From assembly GCA_050253415.1 (NCBI GenBank), contig JBFWJC010000002.1, positions 1 to 64,000 on the forward strand: a DNA stretch of 64,000 bases, given 5' to 3'. The notes beneath the pieces were generated by a model, which was not told where the DNA came from, made no database searches, and saw nothing but the letters and a program-made list of their open reading frames with translations. Shown piece by piece: positions 19,519-34,266 of the stretch (the first letter of the stretch is position 1; the number at the start of each line of letters is the position of its first letter). Origin of the DNA: Pedobacter sp. (GTDB lineage: Bacteria > Desulfobacterota > Desulfuromonadia > Desulfuromonadales > Syntrophotaleaceae). The translations under genes were made by a program, and so were the position numbers.

Positions 19519-21258
19519 TTAAGCTCTCATCTCGTTACCTTCACGTATAATCGTTTCAATAATTTCATTATCACATAGTCCCTGCTGTAAAGAATTTTCC
19601 GCGAGAGGAATCAAGCGATCAAGTATCCTATTACGCTCTTCACACCTTCCTAGGTAGTCATAAGCTTTCGCCAAGGTATCAAGGGTATCAATGTCTTCGC
19701 TACTATCTATATCGAAACTTTCACTCAAATTATTTAGGTTTTTTTCTATAGAGTCAACTATGTCTTTTTTAATTTTTATGGCGCTATACATACTTTTGAC
19801 CTTAATCATATCTAGGGCATAATACAACAGGTTGTTATATAAATTATAGTTCCCATCATCATTTTCAAGACACTCCAAGGTTAAATAATAAGCCTTTTTA
19901 AGCATATTAACTTTCTTAATAGCATTTTTTACACAATCCAATTTTACTAATTCTGACTTATGCCAAAGATAATATCCGTATACCTTCGGAAGATATTTCT
20001 TGATGTGTTTATAATCAGATTCGGGTATTTCAACTGAATCTTCAAACCCCTTTTCTTCTATTTCTTTATATATACTATATGCTTCATTGCATTTTTTCAA
20101 AGATAGGTCTACAAGCCAATTTTGTCCATAAGCCTGGGCAAGTCTCATTTTGACTAGCAAAAAATCTGGGAAAATTTTTTCGATCTGCTCATATAAAATC
20201 AATGCGTCTTCTGCCTCTTTTTTTAAATTTGTTGACAAAAGACAAAAGGCATAATTCATACTCGAATAATAATAGAATAATTTTTTATCTTCATACTTAT
20301 CGTCAGCATATTTAAGATAAAGATCTTTGAATAATTTTCCAGACACAGAAAGTTTATCTATTTTTTCATTGTTTCTATCGGTAGAAAGGGACAATCCCTC
20401 CTCCCGTAAGCTCCTCGCTTCAACATATGTATCTATGTCACCCTGATCAATATTATGTTGTATAAAAAGATCAATAGTTTTTTGGTCAGATCCAACAGAT
20501 TTCAGTTTTAAATGGCCCACTTCTTCACAATTATCATCTAATATTTCAAGATGTATAGCATCAGCATATTCACCACAAGCATCAGAAAATTTCTTTAAAA
20601 TATCAAGGTGTCGAAGAATGCTATTTGGATTTCTTATTTTTAAATCACTATTTTTCCCTTTATTAAAGGAATAACCATACTTGTGGTCAACCTCTCCCCA
20701 TGCGTCTTCAAACACCGTCCTTATTTGTATCTCTACAGGTAAATAATATGTTTTTTCTTGAGAACTAAGTTTGTTAATTTTTTTATTAAGCCTTGCTACT
20801 ATATGAATGCTAGAATACTCACTACCTCTTTGCACGACGTTATAAATGCCATCTACTTCTAGATTTACTGATACATCCCTAAGCATTAAACCTATTTTAT
20901 CGTTAAATCGGTTTGAATAAAATATAAGTTCTTCTAGGCCATCCTTTTTAAAAGGATTAGGATCTAAACTGTTATTTCTAAGAACAATATTTAATAATTT
21001 TTCAAAGATATTTACCATATCAACACGAAATAAAGTTATCAGTCTTAGACCAATAACATCCGTGACATTTAGAATATCGTAATCAATTTTTCCTTCTTGT
21101 TTTTTTATAGATACCTTTTCAATCAATTTTTCTTCGGTTTTAACTCTTGTTTTATATGCATAACAGTCCGAAAGAACCCCGGCTTGTTTAAGTGCATTTA
21201 TTAGGAGTTCCTCTCCTTTTCGACCTTCGCTTTCAAGAAGCAACGCACTATATTCCAA
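19519..21258 (-). CDS. RelA/SpoT synthetase-domain protein with a long helical/TPR-like C-terminus
   Basis: RVKTEEKLIEK, TDVIGLR, YSSIHIV and EIQIRTVFEDAWGEVDHKYGY; TTG start after AAGGAG; visibly very AT-rich. Confidence 0.88.
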   Translation of the reverse strand: MEYSALLLESEGRKGEELLINALKQAGVLSDCYAYKTRVKTEEKLIEKVSIKKQEGKIDYDILNVTDVIGLRLITLFRVDMVNIFEKLLNIVLRNNSLDPNPFKKDGLEELIFYSNRFNDKIGLMLRDVSVNLEVDGIYNVVQRGSEYSSIHIVARLNKKINKLSSQEKTYYLPVEIQIRTVFEDAWGEVDHKYGYSFNKGKNSDLKIRNPNSILRHLDILKKFSDACGEYADAIHLEILDDNCEEVGHLKLKSVGSDQKTIDLFIQHNIDQGDIDTYVEARSLREEGLSLSTDRNNEKIDKLSVSGKLFKDLYLKYADDKYEDKKLFYYYSSMNYAFCLLSTNLKKEAEDALILYEQIEKIFPDFLLVKMRLAQAYGQNWLVDLSLKKCNEAYSIYKEIEEKGFEDSVEIPESDYKHIKKYLPKVYGYYLWHKSELVKLDCVKNAIKKVNMLKKAYYLTLECLENDDGNYNLYNNLLYYALDMIKVKSMYSAIKIKKDIVDSIEKNLNNLSESFDIDSSEDIDTLDTLAKAYDYLGRCEERNRILDRLIPLAENSLQQGLCDNEIIETIIREGNEMRA

Positions 21259-21579: not shown

Positions 21580-21949
21580 GTTTATCGGCTTTCCAATAAG
21601 TTATCTCGGATTGCTTTTCGGTCGATCAAACGAATATGGGCGGGTCTTCTAACAACTCCTGATCAATAGGAAAGGCCCTCCGATTTTCCTGGCGGGCCTT
21701 TCGCGTTTGGTGAGTGGTGATTTGTCTGGGATGTAGGGATCCCTAGTACCTACCATCGTTCGATAATGCGCAAATAGGAGGACAGACCTGCCTGTATAGT
21801 GAGTGCGGCCTGGTGACGCATTAATGCTCGCGCCCTGGAAGGACAGGTCGGATTCATGAATAAACTCCCTATTTTCTCCAAAATAATTGAAATAATGATG
21901 AATTTTTGCGATTCTTCTCAAAAGAAGAAATGCGCTGAAAAATGGATAG

Positions 21950-22032
21950 GCAACACAAGTGTTGCAAACCTCCCCCTCCAAATAAAGCAACTTATTTGTT
22001 GCATATTTGAAATAAAGAAACTTATGTGTTTC
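21950..22032. promoter_or_regulatory. Three 16-bp palindromic operators upstream of the XRE gene
   Basis: GCAAC-ACAAGT-GTTGC (21950), GCAAC-TTATTT-GTTGC (21987), GAAAC-TTATGT-GTTTC (22017). Confidence 0.7.
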
Positions 22033-22063
22033 GTTTAGCACAAAAAGCAATAAAGGAGTTTCT

Positions 22064-22354
22064 ATGGAAAAATCTCTGCTGCAGCAGATCAAAAAAAGAC
22101 GATTGATGCTGGGTTTCAAGCAACACGATATGATGATGCGCATCGGCGTATCCCGTCAGCAATACCAACGTTTGGAGGCCAAGGGCAATCCGCAACTAAG
22201 TACACTGGAACTGATTGCTGAAGGCCTTAACAGCGAACTAATGCTTATTCCCAAAGAAAAAGCGCTGGCCGTGATAGCTGTGCTTGAAGGGGCGCAGGAA
22301 AGGAAAAACCTGTCTGACGACCCGTGGCAGGGCATCCTTGATGATGCTCTATGA
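22064..22354 (+). CDS. XRE-family HTH regulator (HipB-like antitoxin)
   Basis: IKKRRLMLGFKQHDM...GVSRQQYQRLE..GNPQLSTL; RBS AAGGAG; acidic DDPW tail. Confidence 0.85.
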   Translation: MEKSLLQQIKKRRLMLGFKQHDMMMRIGVSRQQYQRLEAKGNPQLSTLELIAEGLNSELMLIPKEKALAVIAVLEGAQERKNLSDDPWQGILDDAL

Positions 22355-22446
22355 GCTATCACGATAGATGTTTTGACCGGGCAAGTTTCGCAACCTTAGT
22401 TACGCATAACTTGTTGCGCCATCGGATCAGACCGGGTGCTGAAATT

Positions 22447-22583
22447 CCTGCAAGCCAGGACATTGCCAGGATTCAATCAGAATTGGTGGAGGGTTTTGAG
22501 CCAAGAAGCCCCGGCGGGTCTAGAGCAATAACAATTGGCGGTTTTGGTGTCAGAAACCTTGGTGGTTTTCATAAGAATATGCA
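22447..22583 (+). repeat. IS21-like terminal sequence, copy 1 of a 137-bp direct repeat
   Basis: Internal sub-repeats of about 25 bp (TGGxGGxTTT...AGAA), ending AGAATATGCA; close copy at 24878-25014. Confidence 0.7.
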
Positions 22584-22830
22584 CTTTGTGCGCAACCGGA
22601 GCCGACCCCCAGGCCCTTGATTGCATTTCCGTCTGTTTTTCGTTGTGTGACCCTGGACTCTTAGTCATATTTTTTCGGTGAATTTTTCATTTTTTCATTT
22701 CATACAGAAAACGATGTAAAATCATATTGTTGTCCTTTAGACCTCGAAAGTAAACCCCTTGCCTTAAGTCTGAGGGTAGCAAAGGTCGCGACATGGACCA
22801 CCTTATGGTTATAGAGAGTTCCAAGCTTTC

Positions 22831-23541
22831 TTAGAATTGATCTCTGTCGAGGTAACGGCGTACGGCCAAAATACCTTCTTTTTTCATCACATCAAGAGGT
22901 GTCGCACCGTCAAAATGTCGATTGGACTGGGTAACCCAGCGATAGGCCAAATCAATGTTGTGCGGAAAGGTGATGCGCAGGGATTTATGTATGCCGAGAA
23001 GATGTCCCGCCCTTTCAAATAGATCCTGACTATCATCAAACGGGGCTCCGTTGCGATATTTGGAAAGGGAGTCAACGGACAAGCCGAGCAATGCGGCCTG
23101 ATCTCTGGTGTCCAACTGCCAGAGATCAAAAAGTTGGAACACTATCTTTGCCAGTCTTTGTCGGCCCTCGGATTCATGCAAATCGACTTTAAAGTGACCA
23201 TTTAGCGTGATATCCTCATCAATTTCGCGATTGATTTTTTCGAGACAATACTCAGCAAAGCCACTTTTCTCGCCTTCTATAAGCGCCTTGCGCAAGGCCT
23301 CCTTTTTGGCAACATCCTGGAGGATGATCGATGCGAGTATTGTTATCCCCTCGTCTCTGACATGCAGGACCTCCCCTTCCGTAACTTGAGAGGTATCAAG
23401 GTCTTCAGCAGAATATCGATAGACACGCAAGGGGTTTTCCCTATCCCCATCCGGCGATTTAGCATTGTGGCCTGTAACACGCAGAACCTCCTTGATGGTA
23501 CCTAAGGGGTTCTGTATTTTGATGCTGATTTCAAAAGGCAT
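22831..23541 (-). CDS. Antitoxin-like protein: Xre/MbcA/ParS-type C-terminal half with a ParD-like internal segment
   Basis: LFDLWQL...QAALLG...ERAGHLLGIHKSLRITFP...RWVTQSNRHFDGATPLDVM...VRRYLD; internal ALRKALIEGEKSG. Confidence 0.75.
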   Translation of the reverse strand: MPFEISIKIQNPLGTIKEVLRVTGHNAKSPDGDRENPLRVYRYSAEDLDTSQVTEGEVLHVRDEGITILASIILQDVAKKEALRKALIEGEKSGFAEYCLEKINREIDEDITLNGHFKVDLHESEGRQRLAKIVFQLFDLWQLDTRDQAALLGLSVDSLSKYRNGAPFDDSQDLFERAGHLLGIHKSLRITFPHNIDLAYRWVTQSNRHFDGATPLDVMKKEGILAVRRYLDRDQF

Positions 23542-23734
23542 AACGTTACTCCACCGATTCGTCTCCCACTGAAGAATTATGTTTGGTTAGTGCAGGAGCA
23601 ATCATGCTCCTCGAGCGTAACGCCCTTCGCATTAACACTGACACCGTAACTGCAATATTTCATAATATACTCGGGAGTGCCTACGAAACTAGTGGCGATC
23701 CAAAAGAGTCACAACGGGCGGAAATACGGAGCCT

Positions 23735-24765
23735 CTAGGAGTGATTCCACAATTGGTTAAAAATCGCATGATTACAGTTGGTTGTCATGGCTTGCGGCCT
23801 TGCCATGGTACCTAGGTCTGATTCCACGATTGCCGGGGGCGGGCAGATCGGCCGGAAGGAACGAACCCCTAGGTTTAGTTCCCCAATTGGCGCAAAACGC
23901 CATGATTACGATGAGTTATCCTGCTTGATGGACCTATGCCAGTACCTAGGTCTGATTCCACGATTGGCGGGGATCGTTGCTCGGGCCAGAGTGCCGGAGC
24001 CCTAGGAGTGATTCCACGATTGGTGGAAAAGCCCATAATTACAGTTGGTTATCATAGCTTGCGGCCTTGCCATGGTACCTAGGTCTGATTCCACGATTGC
24101 CGGGGGCGGGCAGATCGGCCGGAAGGAACGAACCCCTAGGTTTAGTTCCCCGATTGGCGCAAAACGCCATGATTACGATGAGTTATCCTGCTTGATGGAC
24201 CTATGCCAGTACCTAGGTCTGATTCCACGATTGCCGGGGGCGGGCAGATCGGCCGGAAGGAACGAACCCCTAGGTTTAGTTCCCCGATTGGCGCAAAACG
24301 CCATGATTACGATGAGTTATCCTGCTTAATGGCCCTATGCCAGTGCCTAGGTTTGGTTCCACGATTGGCAGAGAGCTTCACCTTGGTCGGAAGTGCGGAC
24401 TATTAAGGAGTGGTTCCATGATTGGCGAGAAACGTCATGATTACGGCTAGTTGCATGATTTGAGCAAATTTTCGCTATCTAGGTCTGATTCCACGATTGG
24501 CAGGGATCGCCATCCTGCCCGGAAGCGCGGGCTATTGAGGAGTGATCCCACGATTTGCGAGAAAAGCCATGATTACGGCGAGTTGCGCGATCTCAACAAT
24601 TGCCAAGCTATCTAGGTTTGATTCCCCGATTGCCGTGGGCGCCAGATCGGCCGGAAGGAAAGGACCCCTAGGTTTAATTCCACGATTGGCGAGAAGCGGT
24701 ATGATTACAGCAAGTTGCACGTGTTGAAGGGGGTTATTCTCTATCTAGGTCTGATTCCACGATTG
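23735..24765 (+). repeat. Non-coding array: 16 copies of a 21-bp box at alternating ~77/~57-bp spacing (~134-bp higher-order unit)
   Basis: Consensus CTAGGTCTGATTCCACGATTG starting at 23735, 23812, 23869, 23946, 24002, 24079, 24136, 24213, 24270, 24347, 24404, 24479, 24536, 24612, 24668 and 24745. Confidence 0.95.
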
Positions 24766-24877
24766 CATCGCCCCGATTTCCCCAAAACTATTGGCCTATG
24801 GTTAGAATATGTCTCGGAAGTTGTCCTGGATAAATTAAAACTTTCATTTTGGGGTAAAACCTTGGGGGCTCACAACC

Positions 24878-25014
24878 CCTGCAACCCAGGACATTGCCAG
24901 AATTTTATCAGAATTGGTGGAGGGTTTTGAGCCAAGAAGTTCCGGCGGGTTTAGAGCAATCACAAGTGGCGGGTTTGGTGTCAGAATCCCTGGCGGTTTT
25001 CATCAGAATATGTA
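24878..25014 (+). repeat. IS21-like terminal sequence, copy 2 of the 137-bp direct repeat
   Basis: CCTGCAACCCAGGACATTGCCAG...TGGCGGTTTTCATCAGAATATGTA. Confidence 0.7.
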
Positions 25015-25083
25015 GCATAGGGGCTTTGCTTTTCTATAGAGCATATTCCCGCTACCCAACTTTATGCGCAAACCCTACGAACA

Positions 25084-25524
25084 CTATTTACCCAATAACT
25101 GTAGAATGGCCAAGTGCCCTCTCACCGTTTTGAGCTCTTCCTTCAGCTCATCGACTTTTTTTTCCGCATTCTGTCGCTTGCGTACCTCTTCATTCTTGTC
25201 AGCTATTGCTTTGTGCCACTTCTTTTTATACCTATCTCGGTCTTCCTGAATTTTTACATATTCCTCCCTGGTAATGGTCTCGCCAGGTGCGGGGATTTTG
25301 AGGTGCTTCTGCTTCCCCCACTTAAGTTCCTTTAGCTCTTCTTTGACGTGGCCTTTGTAGAGGAGCGACTGTGTCGACAAACCTACTTCTTCTAATGAAG
25401 CTGGCGTCTCAGGGAGCCCGAGTTCACGCACAGCAGCAACTAATTCCCGTATCTCCTTCCGTGTTTCTTGTCTTTGTGCTTCCCAACGCTTTTCAAGGTG
25501 TTCAGGTTTTTGTCCTTTGCCCAT
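25084..25524 (-). CDS. Small basic coiled-coil protein, last gene of the recombinase operon (TnpC/GinD-like by architecture)
   Basis: RBS AGGAGG; MGKGQKPEHL...; possible HTH followed by a C-terminal coiled coil. Confidence 0.7.
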   Translation of the reverse strand: MGKGQKPEHLEKRWEAQRQETRKEIRELVAAVRELGLPETPASLEEVGLSTQSLLYKGHVKEELKELKWGKQKHLKIPAPGETITREEYVKIQEDRDRYKKKWHKAIADKNEEVRKRQNAEKKVDELKEELKTVRGHLAILQLLGK

Positions 25525-25535
25525 AACAGCCCTCC

Positions 25536-27722
25536 TTACGCGGCAAGAGCAGAATCCAAACAAAAGCCAACATTCAACATGTCTGCCCTTGGAGACCTCT
25601 TTACAGCACTATCAAAATGACTTCGATTTCCGATAAGCACAACTTGTACTCGGGCGCGTGTAATTGCAGTGTAAATTAGACTGCGATCTAAATGTCCATA
25701 ATCAAACACAGGGATTATTATGCGGTCAAACTCGCTTCCCTGAGACTTGTGAACCGTTATTCCATATGCCAACTCAATCCCTGACTCAGAGATTTCATCG
25801 TCTGTCATGGAGTATTCTTTGCCGTCAAACTCAAAAACAGGTTTCCGCCCATCCAGATGCTTTAAGACACCCAGAGTGCCATTGTAAAGCTCTAGCTCTT
25901 GATTGTTTCTGGTAACGATAACCGGGTCATTGACATACATCTTCCAGCGCACCAGTTCCATTTGTTTCTGGGCATCATTGTGGCCAAACTGAAAATAGCT
26001 GTTAATTCGATTTGTTGAGTCTTTGCCCTTGCGCTTTCGAGCAGAAAGTATCTGGCAATCATGTTTCAATTCTTTGCTGACACGGAACAGTTCTTTAACT
26101 ACCAAGTCTTCCTCACAGTCCAAAAAGAAGACCCCATCCGCCGGACCTACATAATCAGGCAAGGTCTGCATCTCTTTATTGCGAACCTTTTGCGCGACAA
26201 GAGGAATCTCGGTAAGACCTCCACGAACGACGACATCGAGATTAACGCGACGTATAGCCTTAGATGTGCATAGACGGTGAAACACCAGCCCGAACCCGAT
26301 AGGGGGCAACTGCGCCGGGTCGCCAACCATAAGAAGGCGGTAGTGTTTGGGGAGGGAGCGCAGTAGTCTGTGAAATAGGGCTAAGTCAACCATGCTCGCT
26401 TCATCGATAATTATCAACGGGTTTGGCTCAAGAGTGATTGCCTTCGGGTCATCTGGAGACTCTAGCCCCAGATTGATCTTGTGGATAAAGGCATGAATCG
26501 TGTGAGCTGGGCGACCTGTCGTTTTGCGCAAATGCTCCTTCGCGCGACCTGAGAGCGCCATCTGATAAACGGTCTGACCGAGGGCAGTGGCAACGCTATG
26601 AACCCCCTTCATGATAGTGGTCTTGCCTGTGCCTGCACCTCCAGTGATTATTGAAAGGTTGGACGTAGTCGCAACCTCTATAGCCTCCTTCTGGCTGGGT
26701 TTGAGGCGGCTCTCCTTTTCGCTATAGAAGGTGTCATCATAGCGGGCGACCAGTTTTCGTAATTGCTCAAAATCTTTAGAAAACAAGCTTGTCTGGCTTT
26801 GGCTGTGGTCTCGTCTCACCAGTTCGACCAAATCCTTTTCGATGTATGCTTCCATGGCGGCCGGTCCTATGCCCTGAATGTTGGAGGAGCCGAGCTGCAC
26901 GATAGCATTTTTTCCAGCAGCCGCCCTAATCGCGTCATCGGCGAGCTTGTTACTAGAGCTGCCTAGTAGGGTCTTTATCCTCTCTCTTAGGGCAGGCAAT
27001 TCTGTGCTTGTGTGCCCCTCTTCCAAGCGGTCATAGATTGCTTGTTCGACGGCTGCTGCAAGCCTCTTTTTATCATTTTTGCCGAAACCCAGCTTAGCGG
27101 CACTCTCATCTGCTGCCTTCCATAGACTCCTTCTACCAAAGCCAAATGCAATAAGCCGATAAGGGTTATCCCTCAACCGCTCTTCTGCATTGTTGCCATA
27201 AATCTTTATGATCGTGTTGGCTAGGCCACGGTCAAATCCGTACTTTTCAAGAAAGTTAAGGGTGCCAGTTTCCGCTGAGACCCTATGCCACGCACCGAGC
27301 AGAGATTCAGCGACATTTGTCGTTAGAATCGAGGACAGAAGCAGTAAGTCTTTGTCGTTTAAAGCTTTGAGCAAAGAGGGGCCTTCGAGACCATTTGCCT
27401 TTAGCTGGTCCATCTTTTTCTTGCCGAAACCAAATCCTCTGAACTCAGGATGTTCAAGAAGAAATCGGCGGAGAAGGCCAGTTTCACTCGGGACAACTGG
27501 AGTCGCACTTTTGCAATGAATTGTGTCCGGATATTTAGAATGTGGCTTACGTTCACCCTTGACACGCCAGGTCTCGCCTATTTGTGGGATGCGGTAAAGC
27601 CACTTCATGTCCACCTTGGCGCTGAAGTCGAAACCGTCCGCACACTTGCCGAAAAAAACTGCCCCGCCTAATGGTCCGGCTTCCACATGCTCTACCTGAA
27701 AGGTTGCTTCAACAGCACACAT
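25536..27722 (-). CDS. RecD2-like SF1B DNA helicase
   Basis: GGAGTGKT, IIDEASM, GDPAQLPPIG, YGITVHKSQGSEFD, YTAITRAR; N-terminal HhH region with DNPYRL. Confidence 0.93.
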   Translation of the reverse strand: MCAVEATFQVEHVEAGPLGGAVFFGKCADGFDFSAKVDMKWLYRIPQIGETWRVKGERKPHSKYPDTIHCKSATPVVPSETGLLRRFLLEHPEFRGFGFGKKKMDQLKANGLEGPSLLKALNDKDLLLLSSILTTNVAESLLGAWHRVSAETGTLNFLEKYGFDRGLANTIIKIYGNNAEERLRDNPYRLIAFGFGRRSLWKAADESAAKLGFGKNDKKRLAAAVEQAIYDRLEEGHTSTELPALRERIKTLLGSSSNKLADDAIRAAAGKNAIVQLGSSNIQGIGPAAMEAYIEKDLVELVRRDHSQSQTSLFSKDFEQLRKLVARYDDTFYSEKESRLKPSQKEAIEVATTSNLSIITGGAGTGKTTIMKGVHSVATALGQTVYQMALSGRAKEHLRKTTGRPAHTIHAFIHKINLGLESPDDPKAITLEPNPLIIIDEASMVDLALFHRLLRSLPKHYRLLMVGDPAQLPPIGFGLVFHRLCTSKAIRRVNLDVVVRGGLTEIPLVAQKVRNKEMQTLPDYVGPADGVFFLDCEEDLVVKELFRVSKELKHDCQILSARKRKGKDSTNRINSYFQFGHNDAQKQMELVRWKMYVNDPVIVTRNNQELELYNGTLGVLKHLDGRKPVFEFDGKEYSMTDDEISESGIELAYGITVHKSQGSEFDRIIIPVFDYGHLDRSLIYTAITRARVQVVLIGNRSHFDSAVKRSPRADMLNVGFCLDSALAA

Positions 27723-27731
27723 ATCTGCTCC

Positions 27732-28247
27732 TTAGAGAATGGTCCTGCGCCCCGTTTCAAAGAGATGATCAAGGGCTGTTTTTTCGCTCCGATACCTAGC
27801 TTTCAGCTTCCTCTTACAACTTTCCAGTTCAGCTTCGAGGGTCTCTTTTTCCTGAGTGAGACGGTAAATGGTTTCCTGATATGCGCTTATAGTTGCGTCT
27901 TTCTCGGCGTCACTATTCTTAATGTCACTGTCCGCCTTTACCACCTCACATCCAACCTCAGCGATATCGTCATCGATGCGGCATTTGATGTATCTGTTTT
28001 TATAAAGTCGTCCTCGGTCAACCCCGACGGCGCCTGCAATGGCTGCAATATTGGCTGAACCTGTGTTCCTTGCCGCCGGAAACCTTTGCCCGGAAGATTT
28101 CAACTCCTCGACATAGTCCAACCACCAAAGGTACTGAATAATTGCCACTTCGGAGTTGTTGCCGCACGTCACCTCCTTCATTGCATTTTTGTCCCCACGC
28201 TTTATCTTGCGATACTCTGGATTGATAGATTCAGGGACCTCATACAT
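27732..28247 (-). CDS. Small HTH/coiled-coil accessory protein (TnpC/GinD-like)
   Basis: ANIAAIAGAVGVDRGRLYKN HTH-like segment plus a coiled coil; overlaps the upstream recombinase stop. Confidence 0.7.
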   Translation of the reverse strand: MYEVPESINPEYRKIKRGDKNAMKEVTCGNNSEVAIIQYLWWLDYVEELKSSGQRFPAARNTGSANIAAIAGAVGVDRGRLYKNRYIKCRIDDDIAEVGCEVVKADSDIKNSDAEKDATISAYQETIYRLTQEKETLEAELESCKRKLKARYRSEKTALDHLFETGRRTIL

Positions 28248-30051
28248 TGTCGCCTCCTATTGGTATTTCGGCATTGTCAATGCGCTCTATGAGCTTCTTG
28301 TAGAGGCTGGCCTTGTTCAGGGCATTATTCATCAGGGAATCATGCGCCATGGCCTCTGCCTTGTGCGCCTTATCTTCATACTCCGAGATCTTGTTAAGGT
28401 AATAGTCCCTCTCCTCGGCATCTGGAATCAGGTAGTCGCAGCCAAGGCACTGAAACAGGCCTGACCCACAGCTTGTCATGTCTGCGCAAATTCCCAATCT
28501 CCCGACCCTCTGGGCTTTGATATTCCTTTCAAGTAGGATCTTTTCAGCGGCATCTGAATTGATGATTTTGCCCTTGAAAAAGATGGATTCGCCCTTACGC
28601 TCTCTGATTTTATCAGCAACTTTCTTCTGGCGTTCGTCCTGGGAATGGTCATAAGTATCCTCAATCATCCTCTCATTACGGTGGCCGGTTTCCGCCATGA
28701 CTTGGTGTGTAGTCCATCCTTCCGCCATGCGGTCAGTGACATTATTATGTCGCAGTTGATGGGGATTGATGGAATACAAGTTTCCGTCCTCATCAACAAC
28801 ATGTTCCTTTGGGAGTTCACGATAGAGCCAAATATAAACGTTTCTTCGAGTAGCAACCTGAGGCTTATCAGCTTTTTCAAACCAGGAGACCGGAGGGCAC
28901 GGTGGCGTGTGTTTATCAATCAGGGCGTCGTCAATAACGGACGGCCCACCGCACCCAAACTTTACATCATCAAGAAAAGCCTGCATGTAAGGGCTATGGA
29001 ATGTTTGATGACTCAAGCGCTTCTCGGGAGGAGAAAGTTTTGGCCCCATCTTCAACAAAGCGGTTTGGTTTTCGGCAAGGTGGTGCTCGCGCATATATTC
29101 AATGCACTTCTTCGCCCTTACCAAAGCATCTCGTTGTTGAGGGGTGTTGTCGGTTGCCCGATGCTTCCATGTGTAGGTCAACAAAAAGCCCCGTTTCTTT
29201 ATGGGTAGATCCTTTTGAAGTTGCCGTGCGACAGCTTGTTGCTGTTTGATAAGATCGACAAGGAAAGCTCCCATCCCCTCAAGCTTGACTGTTGTCACCA
29301 AAATCCGGCCAGGCCCGTCAGGGTTGCCTGATTGCTTATATTCAGGGATAAGAACGGACATGTACCCTTTACGGTTCGGTTTCAGGCAGTCAATTTGCAT
29401 CGAGGAAACCTCTGTGCCGCGATTGGGAATGAGGCGATGAAGCCAGTAAGCAACTCTCCGCTCAAGCGGGGTTGTTTCGGCACTATAGATTTTGTCGATC
29501 TGAGCGAGTACATACTCAGGCACAGGCTTGACTTCAGAGCGCTTGCTTCTCAGAAAGGGGTTGGGCCTCGGGACCGGGAATTTAATGGGAGAAAAGGGCC
29601 ACCCGACCATTGAAGAATAGAAAACGTCAACGGCGCTCCAGTAGGAATTGCGTGTTCTCTGCGCTAATTTCTGTGACGTCAAGCGAGCCTGGAATAAGGT
29701 CATGCTTTGCCTGTCAACACTGTCAAACCAAATGTTATGCTCATTCAAAAACTCGCAAAAGGGTACTAGGTTGGATACGGCGACTCTTGTAGTGTTGAGG
29801 CTGACTCCAGTTTGAAGCCTGTATAAAGCATAGAGCTTAATTGGCTCACGATATGCTTCAGGAATGGTGATGAAACGAAGGGTCTTTTCGTCATTTGATA
29901 TATTCTTGGCGCCAGAAACCGACTTGTCCATGACCCACGCATTGTCCGACGGTTTGGCGGCTGAGGAATAAGTTGAAAGGAGCTCATATAGCTTGAGGTC
30001 AGAGTTCTCCTCATAAACTTCAGCAATATTGTAATATGCACTGCTACCCAT
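28240..30051 (-). CDS. Tyrosine recombinase 3 (large, Cys-rich C-terminus)
   Basis: PNRGTE (R), PHQLRH (HxxR), TGH...DTY (H, Y); tail GICADMTSC...CLGC. Confidence 0.88.
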   Translation of the reverse strand: MGSSAYYNIAEVYEENSDLKLYELLSTYSSAAKPSDNAWVMDKSVSGAKNISNDEKTLRFITIPEAYREPIKLYALYRLQTGVSLNTTRVAVSNLVPFCEFLNEHNIWFDSVDRQSMTLFQARLTSQKLAQRTRNSYWSAVDVFYSSMVGWPFSPIKFPVPRPNPFLRSKRSEVKPVPEYVLAQIDKIYSAETTPLERRVAYWLHRLIPNRGTEVSSMQIDCLKPNRKGYMSVLIPEYKQSGNPDGPGRILVTTVKLEGMGAFLVDLIKQQQAVARQLQKDLPIKKRGFLLTYTWKHRATDNTPQQRDALVRAKKCIEYMREHHLAENQTALLKMGPKLSPPEKRLSHQTFHSPYMQAFLDDVKFGCGGPSVIDDALIDKHTPPCPPVSWFEKADKPQVATRRNVYIWLYRELPKEHVVDEDGNLYSINPHQLRHNNVTDRMAEGWTTHQVMAETGHRNERMIEDTYDHSQDERQKKVADKIRERKGESIFFKGKIINSDAAEKILLERNIKAQRVGRLGICADMTSCGSGLFQCLGCDYLIPDAEERDYYLNKISEYEDKAHKAEAMAHDSLMNNALNKASLYKKLIERIDNAEIPIGGDNV

Positions 30052-30068
30052 TCCTTTCCTCCAAGAAC

Positions 30069-32012
30069 TTAAAGGTCAATGTTCCTAAGTGTGTCAGTGT
30101 AAGAATCCAGCCTATGTTTTTCAGATTGATATTCGCGATATTTAGAGAAAACTGCTTCAGGGATACCTTCACTTTGATAGGCCCTGACAAGCTCATCGGT
30201 AATTCTGATTTGAGAATCAACGAGGTTCTGCCATTTCTTGCGATATTTCTTGCCCGTGCATAGATTTGGGCACTCGGCACAGGATGTTTCATGCTCACTC
30301 CGCTTGCCGCAAGGCCCGTCCGCCATGTGTTTAACACACTGTCCAAATTCAACATCTCGGCGCCCGAGGCAAAAATCAACAAACAGTTGGCGCCTTTCAT
30401 CTTCGGTATAGGCCTTCAGAACTTCTTCGCCAACATGAACCTCAAATCGTTTATTCCAAAACTCGTTGTTCATGTCGGCAAGTTTTAATTGTTTCGCTTC
30501 GTTATAGTAGGTGTCCGCAGTCTGAATGGTCGCCCAATTGAACTGCGCCAGAAGTTCTGGAGTTGTTGCGCCATCGTTAATTAGATCTACCGCCAAGGTC
30601 TTGCGGCACTGGTGCGTACCAAAGCGCCACAGGGTTCCATCCCAGGTGCAAATGTTATGCTTGGCGATTAGTTCATTCATCTCCCTGATAATAGTGCCTG
30701 TGCTTAAAGGAGAGATGTCGCCCAGAAACTTTGAGTTTCTTCGGACAAAAATCTCTTTTATCTCTTTTCCAGAACGCATGTCCTTTGTAGATTCTGCCTG
30801 CTGGATAAAGGCGGCGAGAACATCGTTGTCGGCGACGTTTATGACATGAAACTTGTCTAGGCCTTTCAGCTTTCGGAATTTCGCTGTTTTATTGGGGAGG
30901 TATTTGAGCCAATACTCGTCTTTCAGTGGTTCGTGCCTGAGCCAATCCTCTTCAAGAGAATTGGCCTCACCGACACGCATCCCCGTCCCCGACATGATTT
31001 CAAAAATGTGTCGGACATCATTGTTGAGGTCTGCCCTGTGGAGGTAAATTTGATCTATCACCTCTTCAGGGATGAAGTCCGCATTTTTAACGTGGTCGTC
31101 TATTGCTCTAAATACGACGCGGCTAAAGGGGTTCTGATGAGGTGGTTGCTCGCCAGTAGGCAGCAGTTCAGGTTTTTTAACGAAGAAGTCAAGGAAGCTG
31201 TCCATCAAGCGAATATGTGAAAATACGGTCTTGGGGGCCATCCCTTTTCGCTCCGTATTTCTATTTCTATTGGTTTCTATCTCATGCTCAAGGTAGTGTA
31301 GAAGCTTGCGCATTAGGGTTATATTGATATCTCGCAGAGACAAGACTTCGGGTGCCGCGTCCTGAATGTACAGCAAGCAGGTCTTTATATTTTCGAAAGG
31401 AGTACTGGTAAGAGGTTGCCATTGGCCCCCCTTGTACCCATTCGCCAGGTAGGTCTTCAGGCACTGTCTGAAAGAAGCATTTTTAATCACACGGAAATCA
31501 AAGGTCCTGCTCGAAAGCGTATCGACGTTAAGTAGGTAAATAGACCAGACATCATCAGTTGTTTCGTAAACCTTCCGATTTTCCTTTGGAAAGAGTTTCT
31601 TCTGTAATTCGCCCTCGCGAAGCACGTGAGGGAGAATAAATTTTTGGTGCACTTTACCTATTGGAATACCATTAGAGCTTTCTGGTAATATGTATTCGAG
31701 CATAAACGCTTGGACTGAAACCTGTCGCCGATTAGCGGTAAACTGCTCCTTCAAGACCCTTTCCACGTAAGCGTCAAATTTCCCCGGCCAAAGCTGCTCC
31801 GCAATAGTGACCATGCTGCTCATAGCCATTTCCTTGTAGACAGACCTGAGCGGAGCGATCCCGTTCAGGCCATCACGCAGTTCATCAATTACCCTGACGG
31901 CTAATTCGGGGTCGCGGCGAAAGGCCTTGCTTGTCTTCCATGACGGATTATATTCAATCGTTACCCCATTGTAGTCCAGGGTGCGCATAGGTTTAGTCAT
32001 CACCACGCTCAT
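30069..32012 (-). CDS. Tyrosine recombinase 2 (large, Tn554 TnpB-like)
   Basis: TGMRVGE, THQCRKT, FNW...DTYY; tail GQC...PC...CAEC. Confidence 0.9.
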   Translation of the reverse strand: MSVVMTKPMRTLDYNGVTIEYNPSWKTSKAFRRDPELAVRVIDELRDGLNGIAPLRSVYKEMAMSSMVTIAEQLWPGKFDAYVERVLKEQFTANRRQVSVQAFMLEYILPESSNGIPIGKVHQKFILPHVLREGELQKKLFPKENRKVYETTDDVWSIYLLNVDTLSSRTFDFRVIKNASFRQCLKTYLANGYKGGQWQPLTSTPFENIKTCLLYIQDAAPEVLSLRDINITLMRKLLHYLEHEIETNRNRNTERKGMAPKTVFSHIRLMDSFLDFFVKKPELLPTGEQPPHQNPFSRVVFRAIDDHVKNADFIPEEVIDQIYLHRADLNNDVRHIFEIMSGTGMRVGEANSLEEDWLRHEPLKDEYWLKYLPNKTAKFRKLKGLDKFHVINVADNDVLAAFIQQAESTKDMRSGKEIKEIFVRRNSKFLGDISPLSTGTIIREMNELIAKHNICTWDGTLWRFGTHQCRKTLAVDLINDGATTPELLAQFNWATIQTADTYYNEAKQLKLADMNNEFWNKRFEVHVGEEVLKAYTEDERRQLFVDFCLGRRDVEFGQCVKHMADGPCGKRSEHETSCAECPNLCTGKKYRKKWQNLVDSQIRITDELVRAYQSEGIPEAVFSKYREYQSEKHRLDSYTDTLRNIDL

Positions 32013-33198
32013 TCTTTTTTTGACGCTCCGTTTGCTCTGTTTTGCGTTTTTTTATACGCCCAGCAACATGCTTTTGTGTCTCTTCGTTCATAGGGTCCAG
32101 ATAATTCAACAAAGGGGAACCGGACTTCCACTTGCGTTTATCAATTATGTAACGGTCATTTACTCCATCCTCTGGGTGCTTCATTGCATGAAGGACGAGG
32201 TTTTGTGTATCAGTGCTTCGCCCAGCATGGGTGACTATTATTTGGGGATCGAACCCAGCAAGATTTGCTGCCGTCTTGAGAATAGTAAGGAAATTGCTGT
32301 AACTAACAGCCTTGCCTTGGTGTTTTTGGTGTCGTTTTAGGTTCACGAAGAAAGGAACCAGAAGCCGCCCTAGGCGCTGTTCTAAAGGAGTTCTTTCGAG
32401 ATTGATATAGTCTTGCAGAATGCGTGCAGTATCCGGGTTACTAAAGTGGACCCAACCAATTTCGCTCTGAGTCACCTTTCCCTTTGACCGTGTTGGCCGA
32501 ACCTTTGCTTCATAGGGGTCGAACCCGTCAGCTTCAATGCTAAGGACTTCGTCTATTCGTAAGCCCTCCAAAGTCAAGGCGAAGATGGCCCTGTCTCGCA
32601 ATGTCCGAAAGCAAGCCATAATGCCGTTGACCTGGTCTTGGCTATAGTGCTTGAGTTTTTTATGCTTGGGTGGGTCAGGTAAACCCAAGAGGTTAATGTT
32701 ATCAAGGTATTGATTGGTCTCGATTTCCCAAATTTGGCCATAAACATAACTCTGCTTTGAGCGCTTATAGCCTTTTGCTTCGCGGGTTTTTCTAGATACA
32801 GGCTCGTTTTCGTCAATATTACCGTCCATATGCTTGTAAAGCTCCTTCAGGACAGTAATGTATGTCTTTAGGGTGGGGAGGTCGACCTGTGGATTAAGGG
32901 ACACCACCTGTTCTTTCAAGTCAGCCCCCATGCCGATGGTTCGCAAGTATACGTTGACATCCTTCTTGGTGGCATCAGTAAAAGTCTTGTTGCGCCCAAG
33001 GAGAAAATTCAACCATGGAACGATAATGTTGCCGTAAGTACGGGCGGTGCCGATAGACCTCAGCGCCTTAGATATGAGAAATGAGTTAATCTCAGCTACG
33101 AGCATAAGGTCGGGGTCTTCCACAATGCAGACCTCAACCTCCCTCTCTTTTATCGAGAAAACAGCGTTCACCAATCTATACCTACCCTTGTTACTCAC
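31993..33198 (-). CDS. Tyrosine recombinase 1 (Tn554 TnpA-like)
   Basis: LRDRAIF..EGLRIDE, THAGRS, RKW...LNY; probable GTG start at 33198 after GAGGAG. Confidence 0.88.
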   Translation of the reverse strand: MSNKGRYRLVNAVFSIKEREVEVCIVEDPDLMLVAEINSFLISKALRSIGTARTYGNIIVPWLNFLLGRNKTFTDATKKDVNVYLRTIGMGADLKEQVVSLNPQVDLPTLKTYITVLKELYKHMDGNIDENEPVSRKTREAKGYKRSKQSYVYGQIWEIETNQYLDNINLLGLPDPPKHKKLKHYSQDQVNGIMACFRTLRDRAIFALTLEGLRIDEVLSIEADGFDPYEAKVRPTRSKGKVTQSEIGWVHFSNPDTARILQDYINLERTPLEQRLGRLLVPFFVNLKRHQKHQGKAVSYSNFLTILKTAANLAGFDPQIIVTHAGRSTDTQNLVLHAMKHPEDGVNDRYIIDKRKWKSGSPLLNYLDPMNEETQKHVAGRIKKRKTEQTERQKKNERGDD

Positions 33199-33291
33199 GC
33201 TCTCCTCCTCGTTCCGTTTCCCGAGGGTAAACATTAACCTTCTGCAATAAACCAACAAGACTTCTTTAACACAAAAATTCACGATAGTAAA

Positions 33292-33322
33292 CAAAAAAGG
33301 TGCCTATAAATACAGGCACCTT
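33292..33322 (-). terminator. Terminator just inside the element end, blocking read-through from pncB
   Basis: Minus strand reads AAGGTGCCT-GTATTTAT-AGGCACCTT followed by a T run. Confidence 0.65.
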
Positions 33323-33368: not shown

Positions 33369-34058
33369 CTAAACATGAGCCATGGTGCCGACCGGTGGCA
33401 AACCCAGTTGGCGGGCCAGGTGCATGTTGCTGGTTCCCGCCAGGTAGTCCGGAATTTCACGGTTGAGGATATCCAGTACCCGTTCCTGCCACTGGCGGTT
33501 GAAGCGGCGGCGGGTGCCGAAGTCGATAATCCGCAGTCCGTCCAGCTGGCCGCGCTGCTGCAACAGTGCGATCTTTTCGAAAAGGCGCCGCTGTCCCGTA
33601 GCATAATCGGGCCGGGGGTAGGCGGCTCTGGTATGGACCTCGTTGATGATCGACAGGCCGTAGATTTCAAAGAGGGTGACCTGCAGCAGGGGACCGTGCA
33701 GGCGCAGCTCGATGTTCTCGCTGTCAGGGCGCAGCGAGAGGTGGTTCATCTCGAGACGCACCGTGGCCAGATAGTCCAGGAAATCAGGTTTGAAATAGCC
33801 CAGGGTCGCCAGGTAGCGAATTTCGTCGTCTTGAAAGCGTAGCGAGCACAGATGCTCGAATTGGCGACGGATCTCCGGGATCAACCGCCGGAGTTGCTTG
33901 TTTTCGGGATTCCGGCACTTGAATTTCCATTCGGTGTCAGCCCCCTCGAATGCACTGCAGTGGTAAAAGGCCTGCAACATGGTGAGCTTGTACAGGTCCG
34001 TATCCAGCAGGGTCTCGATAATCCAGGGCATGTTTTGTGTCTGTGCGGTCATTGTCAT
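33369..34058 (-). pseudogene. pncB: Nicotinate phosphoribosyltransferase, 5' half only
   Basis: LLDTDLYKLTM, DFGTRRRF, GTSN, then GTMAH followed immediately by V-stop; about 230 codons versus about 400 expected. Confidence 0.9.
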
Positions 34059-34266
34059 CTCCGGAAGAGGTGAACTGAACGTTACCATATCCTTTGCAAG
34101 GGAAAAACCCGTTTTGCGCAAAAAGGTCCGGAGCGCAGCTAGTGGACGGGGCCAAATTTTTAAGGGACAATGGCTTATGAGAGAAAGACCAAGGGGATTT
34201 CGAAGTTCGGCTGGTATCGGTCCGGGCGCATTCATGGAATAGGCATTTCATCCAGGGGATTTTATC

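Follow-up and report, generated by a model that had tools for sequence, protein, structure and literature searches.

A tandem array of probable plasmid iterons without an initiator gene in a genome of the Desulfuromonadales

The DNA analysed here (hereafter the window) comprises the first 64,000 nucleotides of contig JBFWJC010000002.1 from a genome of the order Desulfuromonadales deposited as Pedobacter sp. (assembly GCA_050253415.1). Between a gene for an Xre-like protein and a recombinase/RecD2 mobile element, it carries a tandem array of a 21-bp box that also occurs in clusters on plasmid-like contigs, one of them directly beside the gene of a putative replication initiator. We describe the array and its surroundings and weigh the tentative reading that it is a chromosomal bank of plasmid iterons.

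Geometry and conservation of the array

The array and its parts are as follows.

23735..24765, + strand: the array, 16 direct boxes making up 8 units of about 134 bp, non-coding
Each unit: an A box, a long spacer of 56 nt, a B box and a short spacer of 35-36 nt
Starts at 23812, 23946, 24079, 24213, 24347, 24479, 24612 and 24745, + strand (range 23812..24765): B boxes, iteron-type, 21 nt each
Starts at 23735, 23869, 24002, 24136, 24270, 24404, 24536 and 24668, + strand (range 23735..24688): A boxes, a diverged subtype

The count of 16 comes from an in-register search that allowed up to 6 mismatches, which reproduced exactly both the number of boxes and the start-to-start spacings (77,57,77,56,77,57,77,57,77,57,75,57,76,56,77) listed in a first-pass annotation of this DNA. 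At the array, Tandem Repeats Finder detects periodicities of 134, 267 and 132. At a limit of three mismatches the 21-bp box has 11 matches across the window, all of them on the + strand within 23735-24765, and 100 dinucleotide shuffles of the window give an expectation of 0. The box is asymmetric and not palindromic, and no long open reading frame (ORF) in the ORF list of the window spans the array, in agreement with the annotation's claim that it is non-coding.

The alternation of two box subtypes, which the annotation had also described, is equally clear. The eight boxes in front of short spacers (B) read AGGTCTG (n = 6) or AGGTTTG (n = 2), and the eight in front of long spacers (A) read AGGAGTG or AGGTTTA (four each). 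The spacer motifs that it had picked out were recovered by alignment, AT(G/A)ATTAC in 8/8 long spacers and CGGAAG in 6/7 short ones, and a conserved block of about GGCGAGAAAYGCC-ATGATTAC-N4-AGTT follows each A box on its 3′ side. The alignment likewise upheld the proposed recent duplication of units, as there is no difference among short spacers 2, 6 and 8 and almost none among long spacers 3, 7 and 9. Contigs from DNA sequencing runs break inside the array. Four runs are labelled RNA-Seq but are probably DNA, and two of these gave three 150-nt contigs at a depth of 2-3.

A paralogous array, again of 16 boxes, lies on the − strand of another contig of the same genome (G000:C4:5471-6501), with spacings of 77,57,76,57,76,57,76,57,76,57,77,57,76,59,77; together the two arrays bring the genome to 32 boxes. 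The two loci are 78% identical over 1323 nt, a stretch that extends beyond the arrays by about 165 nt on the upstream side and 120 nt on the downstream side. Conservation was measured on the 16 aligned units of both arrays as the mean pairwise identity of each segment. It is highest in the B box (0.92), followed by the A box (0.78), the motif behind the A box (0.74), the short spacer (0.59) and the variable part of the long spacer (0.49), and the clustering of conserved columns was reached by 0 of 5000 column shuffles. The pattern that the annotation had likened to protein binding is thus present, the B boxes standing far above the spacers (0.92 vs 0.49-0.59), and this unevenness between boxes and spacers argues against simple neutral decay of a minisatellite.

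The box beside a plasmid initiator gene

Scans for an exact 19-mer of the box returned three stretches in genome_contigs, nine in metagenome_contigs and none in viral_contigs. The matches consist of a near-identical copy of the present locus (L022), clusters on plasmid-like contigs and six single occurrences, a number compatible with chance. One cluster (L031/L033, which is G072:C136) has eight boxes at spacings of 23, 75, 33, 32, 22, 52 and 23; two others have five (L029) and four (L026) boxes at spacings of 23, 91-102, 32 and 22. The G072 contig encodes a MobA/MobL relaxase, an actin-like segregation protein, a ParA-like ATPase and a single-stranded DNA-binding protein (SSB). The L031 and L032 contigs overlap by 127 identical bases, and on L032 the first box lies 5 nt 3′ of the stop codon of a 364-aa ORF. 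The exact 19-mer known from these plasmid clusters is present in six of the eight B boxes of the window and in 10/16 B boxes across both arrays, and the A boxes of the window differ from it by 2-5 mismatches. The clusters at L029:3978-4164 and L026:3978-4153 are situated between a 198-203-aa ORF and a serine resolvase, which is followed by a LlaJI/McrB-like restriction module; they may be a second kind of iteron cluster, distant from rep.

The 364-aa protein has no Pfam match of its own. Because searches of Protein Data Bank (PDB) sequences with the protein and with its profile gave nothing relevant, a fold search was needed. An AlphaFold model of the protein (pLDDT 87.6) was compared with the PDB by Foldseek, and 46/46 matches at E<=0.001 were RctB, RepE54-iteron, pi-iteron or Rep-DUE complexes. 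In the Atlas, its feature neighbours (0.94-0.95) carry RepC, RPA, Rep3_N, RepA_C or TrfA, and by structure it falls with 'replication protein' clusters (TM 0.82-0.84). Homologues number 58, two of which have a recorded Rep_3 domain, and among 36 aligned homologues Pfam recognises Rep3_N in three and RepC in one. By tblastn the protein matches 1272 plasmid records, with 32-34% identity over at least 90% of its length; these are annotated replication proteins, mostly of enterobacterial conjugative plasmids. Judged by its modelled fold and by these matches, the 364-aa protein is a replication initiator (hereafter Rep) of the dual winged-helix type, resembling Rep_3 and IncA/C RepA. An array of transposon ends, with transposase sites like those of Tn7, Mu or Tn402, had been considered in view of the 22-33-bp clusters, and was dropped because the adjoining ORF is Rep and no transposase was seen beside the boxes.

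Repeats downstream of rep recur in the family. The IncA plasmid pRAx has a homologous rep followed by many direct repeats at spacings of 23, 33, 65, 93 and 104, and a 29% identical Rep (G084) is followed by 5-6 direct repeats of 20-22 nt and of other sequence. IncA and IncC replicons are described, in the available excerpt of PMC7433901, as having 11-14 iterons of 19 bp and one DnaA box, with oriV downstream of repA. The cluster of the G072 plasmid contains a DnaA-box-like 9-mer with 1 mismatch, and pRAx, taken as a control, contains two perfect ones.

Since eight copies of the box abut the gene of a Rep with a RepE/pi/RctB-like fold, and the same layout is found in the family, the box is probably the iteron of a Rep_3/IncA-C-like plasmid replicon. 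Direct repeats of about 17-22 bp in multiple copies, which iterons are, are found in the 16 boxes of the window and in the 16 of the C4 array; clustering of the same sequence beside an initiator gene is found on the plasmid (L032/L031), not in the window. The plasmid that carries this Rep is found in a related family of the same order.

No homologue of the L032 Rep was found in the genome of the window (G000) by tblastn, by a single-protein search or with a 36-sequence profile, and the Pfam families RPA, TrfA and Rep3_N all scored below their cut-offs there (at best 15.3 bits vs a cut-off of 22.4). No DnaA-box-like 9-mer occurs in 22300-25200 at up to 1 mismatch, and the A+T-richest 40-mers lie about 1 kb from the array, beyond the Xre gene. 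The array therefore has neither the cognate rep gene nor the DnaA box of a functional iteron origin (oriV), and the annotation's suggestion of a replication origin survives only in the nature of the repeat, a probable plasmid iteron.

The array itself was not found in 232 other genomes of the order by BLAST or in 400 genomes of the phylum by pattern search. The BLAST search with the whole locus gave small pieces of the flanks and one 23-nt match to the box, in G072. The box pattern, with up to 2 mismatches, gave one isolated match in each of 7 genomes, and the reversed pattern, run as a control on the same 400 genomes, gave 3 matches. Plasmid and phage collections contained no blastn match to the array. 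The G000 loci and the box-bearing plasmid-like loci have no protein in common (blastp, 1e-3), and tblastn of the plasmid-locus proteins against G000 found only generic helicase, resolvase and phosphoesterase matches elsewhere in the genome.

It is a textbook principle of copy control that extra iterons lower initiation, since they titrate Rep and since Rep couples origins to one another (handcuffing). With RctB on chromosome 2 (Chr2) of Vibrio cholerae, iterons at a distance from the origin have these effects, according to the available excerpt of PMC6090056. Our preferred reading of the array, put forward tentatively and from sequence, is that it forms a chromosomal, rep-less bank of plasmid iterons that would bind Rep in trans by titration or handcuffing and would so constitute chromosome-encoded incompatibility. 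Because the chromosome that carries it has no initiator, the array could act only on an incoming replicon. Once a plasmid of matching replicon type entered the cell, its Rep monomers would load onto the arrays, which would drain free Rep, and Rep-Rep bridges would couple the plasmid origin to the arrays. Faced with iterons equal to about four plasmid copies, the plasmid would sense the cell as already holding several copies and initiation would fail, an outcome equivalent to iteron incompatibility supplied in trans by the chromosome. The boxes of the window are in this scheme predicted Rep-binding sites, and we infer both the binding and the resulting inhibition.

Flanking DNA and neighbouring mobile elements

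The surroundings of the array contain the following features.

22064..22354, + strand: HTH_3 protein, 96 aa
22447..22581, + strand: copy a of the 135-nt repeat, a direct repeat of copy b at 90% identity
22831..23541, − strand: Xre-like protein, 236 aa, with a helix-turn-helix (HTH) and a C-terminal domain of the MbcA/ParS antitoxin type
23571..23734, + strand: upstream block common to the window and C4 arrays
23638..23666, + strand: promoter-like CTGACA-17-CATAAT, directed into the array (a consensus match only)
23669..23702, − strand: 34-nt remnant resembling a terminal inverted repeat of the IS3 family of insertion sequences (IS)
24766..24884, + strand: downstream block common to the window and C4 arrays, containing TAGAAT and a 9-codon ORF
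24878..25012, + strand: 135-nt repeat, copy b, with three GGCGGKTTT sub-repeats, at the distal end of the recombinase/RecD2 element
25084..33294, − strand: recombinase/RecD2 mobile element, outside the array, inserted in pncB

The first 75-90 nt of the upstream block also occur at a third locus, on contig C7, which has no array. That locus (G000:C7:1129-1645, L011) encodes a paralogue of the 236-aa Xre-like protein that corresponds to its N-terminal 112 aa, preceded by the same 90 nt as the array 'leader', with no IS remnant. At the window locus the IS3-type remnant (23669-23702) ends 33 nt upstream of the first box, and it is kept in the C4 copy. In the downstream block, 24790-24864 is also conserved at two array-less loci of the sister genome G197. 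The small unit to which this belongs (24790-24884, with TAGAAT and the ORF MSRKLSWIN) is found 3′ of both arrays and twice in G197 (L013, L019), and is the insertion place of the recombinase element; it may be a gene for a small RNA or a leader peptide.

The element at 25084..33294 encodes tyrosine recombinases of 433, 647 and 603 aa, a DUF6262 protein, a RecD2-like helicase of 728 aa and a 159-aa protein; no Rep-like protein is encoded in this operon. A search of 400 other genomes of the class at E<=1e-20 turned up no homologue of the 647-aa middle recombinase. In PADLOC the helicase gene (25536-27722) matches best the type IV-D CRISPR-associated RecD model (E 1.2e-59), a match that probably reflects general RecD2 similarity, since no Csf or Cas proteins lie nearby and Cas1 was not found in the genome.

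The 135-nt repeat is probably an arm or end region of the recombinase element. Copy b interrupts the downstream block of the array, which continues differently in C4 and at the two G197 loci; copies a and b flank the Xre gene plus the array; and each copy is preceded by CCTKCAA. A third copy (G000:C1:145-284) lies 100 nt from the 3′ junction of pncB, beside an IS3-type IS at the contig end. The pncB gene (nicotinate phosphoribosyltransferase) is split by the recombinase-trio/RecD2 element into a 5′ part that occupies 33369-34235 of the window, ending at 33369, and a 3′ part at G000:C1:380-898, with CTCATG at both junctions (window 33374-33379; C1:381-386). The two parts are on separate contigs and, when the contigs are placed along their likely path, point in opposite directions, which suggests a rearrangement after the insertion.

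Another recombinase set, a gamma-mobile-trio lacking RecD2, is located 750 nt from the C4 array. This set (G000:C4:1-4602, L009) comprises GmtZ (1021 aa), GmtX (240 aa) and a GmtY-like integrase that is cut at the contig start by an IS3-type IS, 127 nt of whose end close contigs C1, C4 and C8. The annotation had tied the array to the adjacent recombinase/helicase operon. We rejected the idea that the array is part of that element, from which it is separated by the 135-nt end repeat, and the paralogous array stands beside a GmtY/Z/X trio instead. Three genomes from the same genus contain nothing that corresponds to 16.2-33.4 kb of the window except pncB and short repeats. The array is therefore located in strain-specific, mobile-element-rich DNA, and the recombinase/RecD2 operon is its neighbour, not its partner.

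A 0.8-kb module that encodes the 96-aa HTH_3 protein is present three times in the genome at about 91% identity (21641-22449, C4:7058-7858 and C4:15879-16667) and flanks both arrays. No toxin gene was recognised beside the 236-aa Xre-like/MbcA-ParS protein. In the accessory segment, a 579-aa protein with a RelA/SpoT synthetase domain (19519-21258), without a PADLOC match, is encoded beside HTH- and antitoxin-like genes and may be a toxic module of the small-alarmone-synthetase type.

Competing readings and their meaning

A number of observations weigh against a Rep-binding iteron bank. The similarity between the plasmid clusters and the array ends at the box (21-23 nt), and the 57/77-bp spacing is far wider than the 22-33 bp of the plasmid clusters and amounts to non-integral helical turns. 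The A boxes, with their 2-5 differences, may bind Rep weakly or not at all, and the plasmid clusters lack the motif that follows these boxes (ATGATTAC...AGTT), which a pure iteron model leaves unexplained. No rep gene was found on L029 or L026 in the contig part examined. In 5426 Escherichia coli genomes, the IncA/C iteron matches belong to 129 whole origins, 127 on plasmids and two chromosomal, and no rep-less array was among them, so there is no precedent there. The G000 assembly is a draft of 18 contigs with 4535 bases withheld, of a kind from which plasmids are often missing, and a rep-bearing plasmid may have escaped assembly. Finally, the function is deduced from sequence identity alone, and an encounter of the host with the cognate plasmid is assumed.

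The array might instead be a relic: an accessory island would have picked up a two-iteron piece from the origin or the copy-control region of a plasmid, unequal crossing-over would have multiplied it eightfold, and a later copy would have reached a second locus, all of it now inert. The strain-specific surroundings, with their many mobile elements, IS remnants and rearrangements, would be a natural place for such a remnant, several units are recent exact duplicates, rep and other origin features are missing, and no other genome searched has the array. Neutral decay, however, should affect boxes and spacers equally, whereas the B boxes are at 0.92 and the variable spacer is at 0.49, a clustering that no column shuffle reached, and 10 of 16 B boxes are still perfect 19-mers. 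Both arrays, moreover, keep 16 boxes and the same spacing despite an overall identity of 78%. On balance, we regard an inert relic as unlikely. By analogy with islands that borrow transfer functions from a helper, the array could also be a helper-dependent origin; the excised island would then be a satellite with no more than an oriV, replicated by the Rep that a visiting plasmid supplies. Both arrays do lie 0.1-0.75 kb from the distal end of multi-recombinase integrative elements, and islands that replicate only with a helper IncC plasmid are known (SGI1, in the available excerpt of PMC7433901). According to the same excerpt, however, SGI1 replicates with a rep gene and iterons of its own, and the present array is outside the recombinase/RecD2 element as bounded by the 135-nt repeat; with no DnaA-box-like site in 22300-25200 and the A+T-richest 40-mers about 1 kb away, a satellite origin appears distinctly improbable.

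The boxes could also be sites of another protein, such as the 96-aa HTH protein, the 236-aa Xre-like protein, an adaptor of a sopC-like partition system or the tyrosine recombinases. The HTH_3 module next to both arrays, the motif linked to the A boxes that Rep does not explain, and the ParA-like and actin-like segregation proteins encoded on the plasmid-like contig would fit such a role. We nevertheless consider it improbable: G000 and the plasmid-like box loci have no protein in common at E<=1e-3, rep abuts the box cluster but the segregation genes are 3-8 kb away from it, and the box is not palindromic. For recombinases in particular, direct repeats would delete one another, and the two arrays are located beside unrelated recombinase sets. 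As to partition, the sopC centromere of the F plasmid consists of 12 tandem 43-bp repeats beside sopAB, with an inverted repeat in each unit for a ParB-type protein. The window resembles it in its long, regular tandem array of units for which protein binding is predicted, and differs in the asymmetry of its box and in lacking adjoining par genes (a scan of the ORFs in 12991-34235 showed no ParA, ParB, ParM or ParR). A centromere array like sopC or parC was rejected on these two grounds.

That the array is transcribed and yields small RNAs by processing, or an RNA that works as a sponge, is very improbable. The promoter-like site at 23638-23666 is directed into the array, and the upstream block is conserved between the two arrays. 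Against this, neither Rfam (E<=1) nor ARAGORN found anything in the array, and RNAalifold, run on the 134-nt units in four phases on both strands, gave −2.7 kcal/mol on the + strand and −4.3 kcal/mol on the − strand for 14 units (the last two excluded), with no conserved helix beyond 2-5 pairs. When three 300-nt pieces were folded as single strands, they did no better than shuffles (z −0.59, −0.97 and +0.92). The spacers, in addition, are diverged copies of each other and not acquired sequences, and the plasmid copies of the box are irregularly spaced, at 22-100 bp, beside rep. The small-RNA array proposed by the annotation consequently finds no backing in conserved structure or Rfam matches. 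A CsrA-type sponge RNA, suggested by GGA motifs seen by eye, likewise drew no support from the folds.

Two other identities were tried and rejected. The array shares with CRISPR arrays a regular repeat-spacer appearance and a 'leader'-like upstream block common to both copies; it differs in that its repeat is 21 bp long, below the 23-55 nt of CRISPR repeats, and of two subtypes, in that its spacers alternate between two lengths (36 and 56 nt) and are related, being copies of each other, and in that no cas genes lie nearby. The annotation had already noted that cas genes are absent and that the box is not a hairpin, and this assessment is supported by the non-palindromic box and by our finding neither cas genes among the flanking ORFs nor Cas1 in the genome. 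A site for integration host factor (IHF) at ATGATTAC, sought with the E. coli consensus, had no match in the window array at <=1 mismatch and one out-of-phase match in the C4 array, no more than in shuffles.

If the array is, as we tentatively prefer, a bank of iterons for a foreign Rep, its closest counterparts are the iteron clusters of IncA/C-type plasmids. Both consist of direct repeats of about 19-21 bp, the box is letter-identical to the repeats 3′ of the homologous rep, and the layout downstream of rep is also that of pRAx and G084. The window, however, is without rep, DnaA box or plasmid backbone, has 16 sites in a strict two-part period of 134 bp as opposed to irregular distances of 22-100 bp, and its array is chromosomal and present in two copies. 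The classical iteron arrays of copy control and incompatibility are incA of P1 and incC of F. Along with the RctB locus of Chr2 (PMC6090056, available excerpt), they are, like the window array as read here, repeats bound by an initiator that do not serve as origins and exert their effect through titration or handcuffing; they differ in being on the same replicon as their own initiator gene, whose copy control they serve. Chromosomal initiator-binding loci that modulate replication in trans, as the window array would, are represented by E. coli datA and V. cholerae crtS, which, in the same excerpt, serve resident essential replicons with few sites and no long tandem array. SGI1 is, as described in the available excerpt of PMC7433901, a chromosomal island that disturbs the maintenance of IncA/C-type plasmids through replication functions, but it has its own rep gene and four iterons of other sequence, whereas the island in the window has the iteron of the plasmid and no rep.

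A literature search by keyword turned up no chromosomal, rep-less array in which a foreign plasmid's iterons are amplified, and no paper came up when full texts were searched with the box core or its reverse complement. Known titration and handcuffing are described on the replicon that owns the initiator, whereas here there would be 32 foreign iterons without an initiator. A bolder version of the iteron-bank reading, which we think rather doubtful, is that the two 16-site arrays were amplified and kept by selection, inside a mobile-element-rich island, as a DNA-only 'iteron decoy' immunity that needs no protein of its own. If so, the arrays would mimic the iterons of several plasmid copies, and an incoming IncA/C-like plasmid of this replicon type would be titrated or handcuffed and its establishment blocked. 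On the iteron-bank reading in general, incompatibility determinants would have been captured and amplified, either for plasmid defence and competition or for exploitation of a helper by the island, and such arrays would allow unbinned environmental plasmids to be matched by sequence with the hosts that had encountered them.

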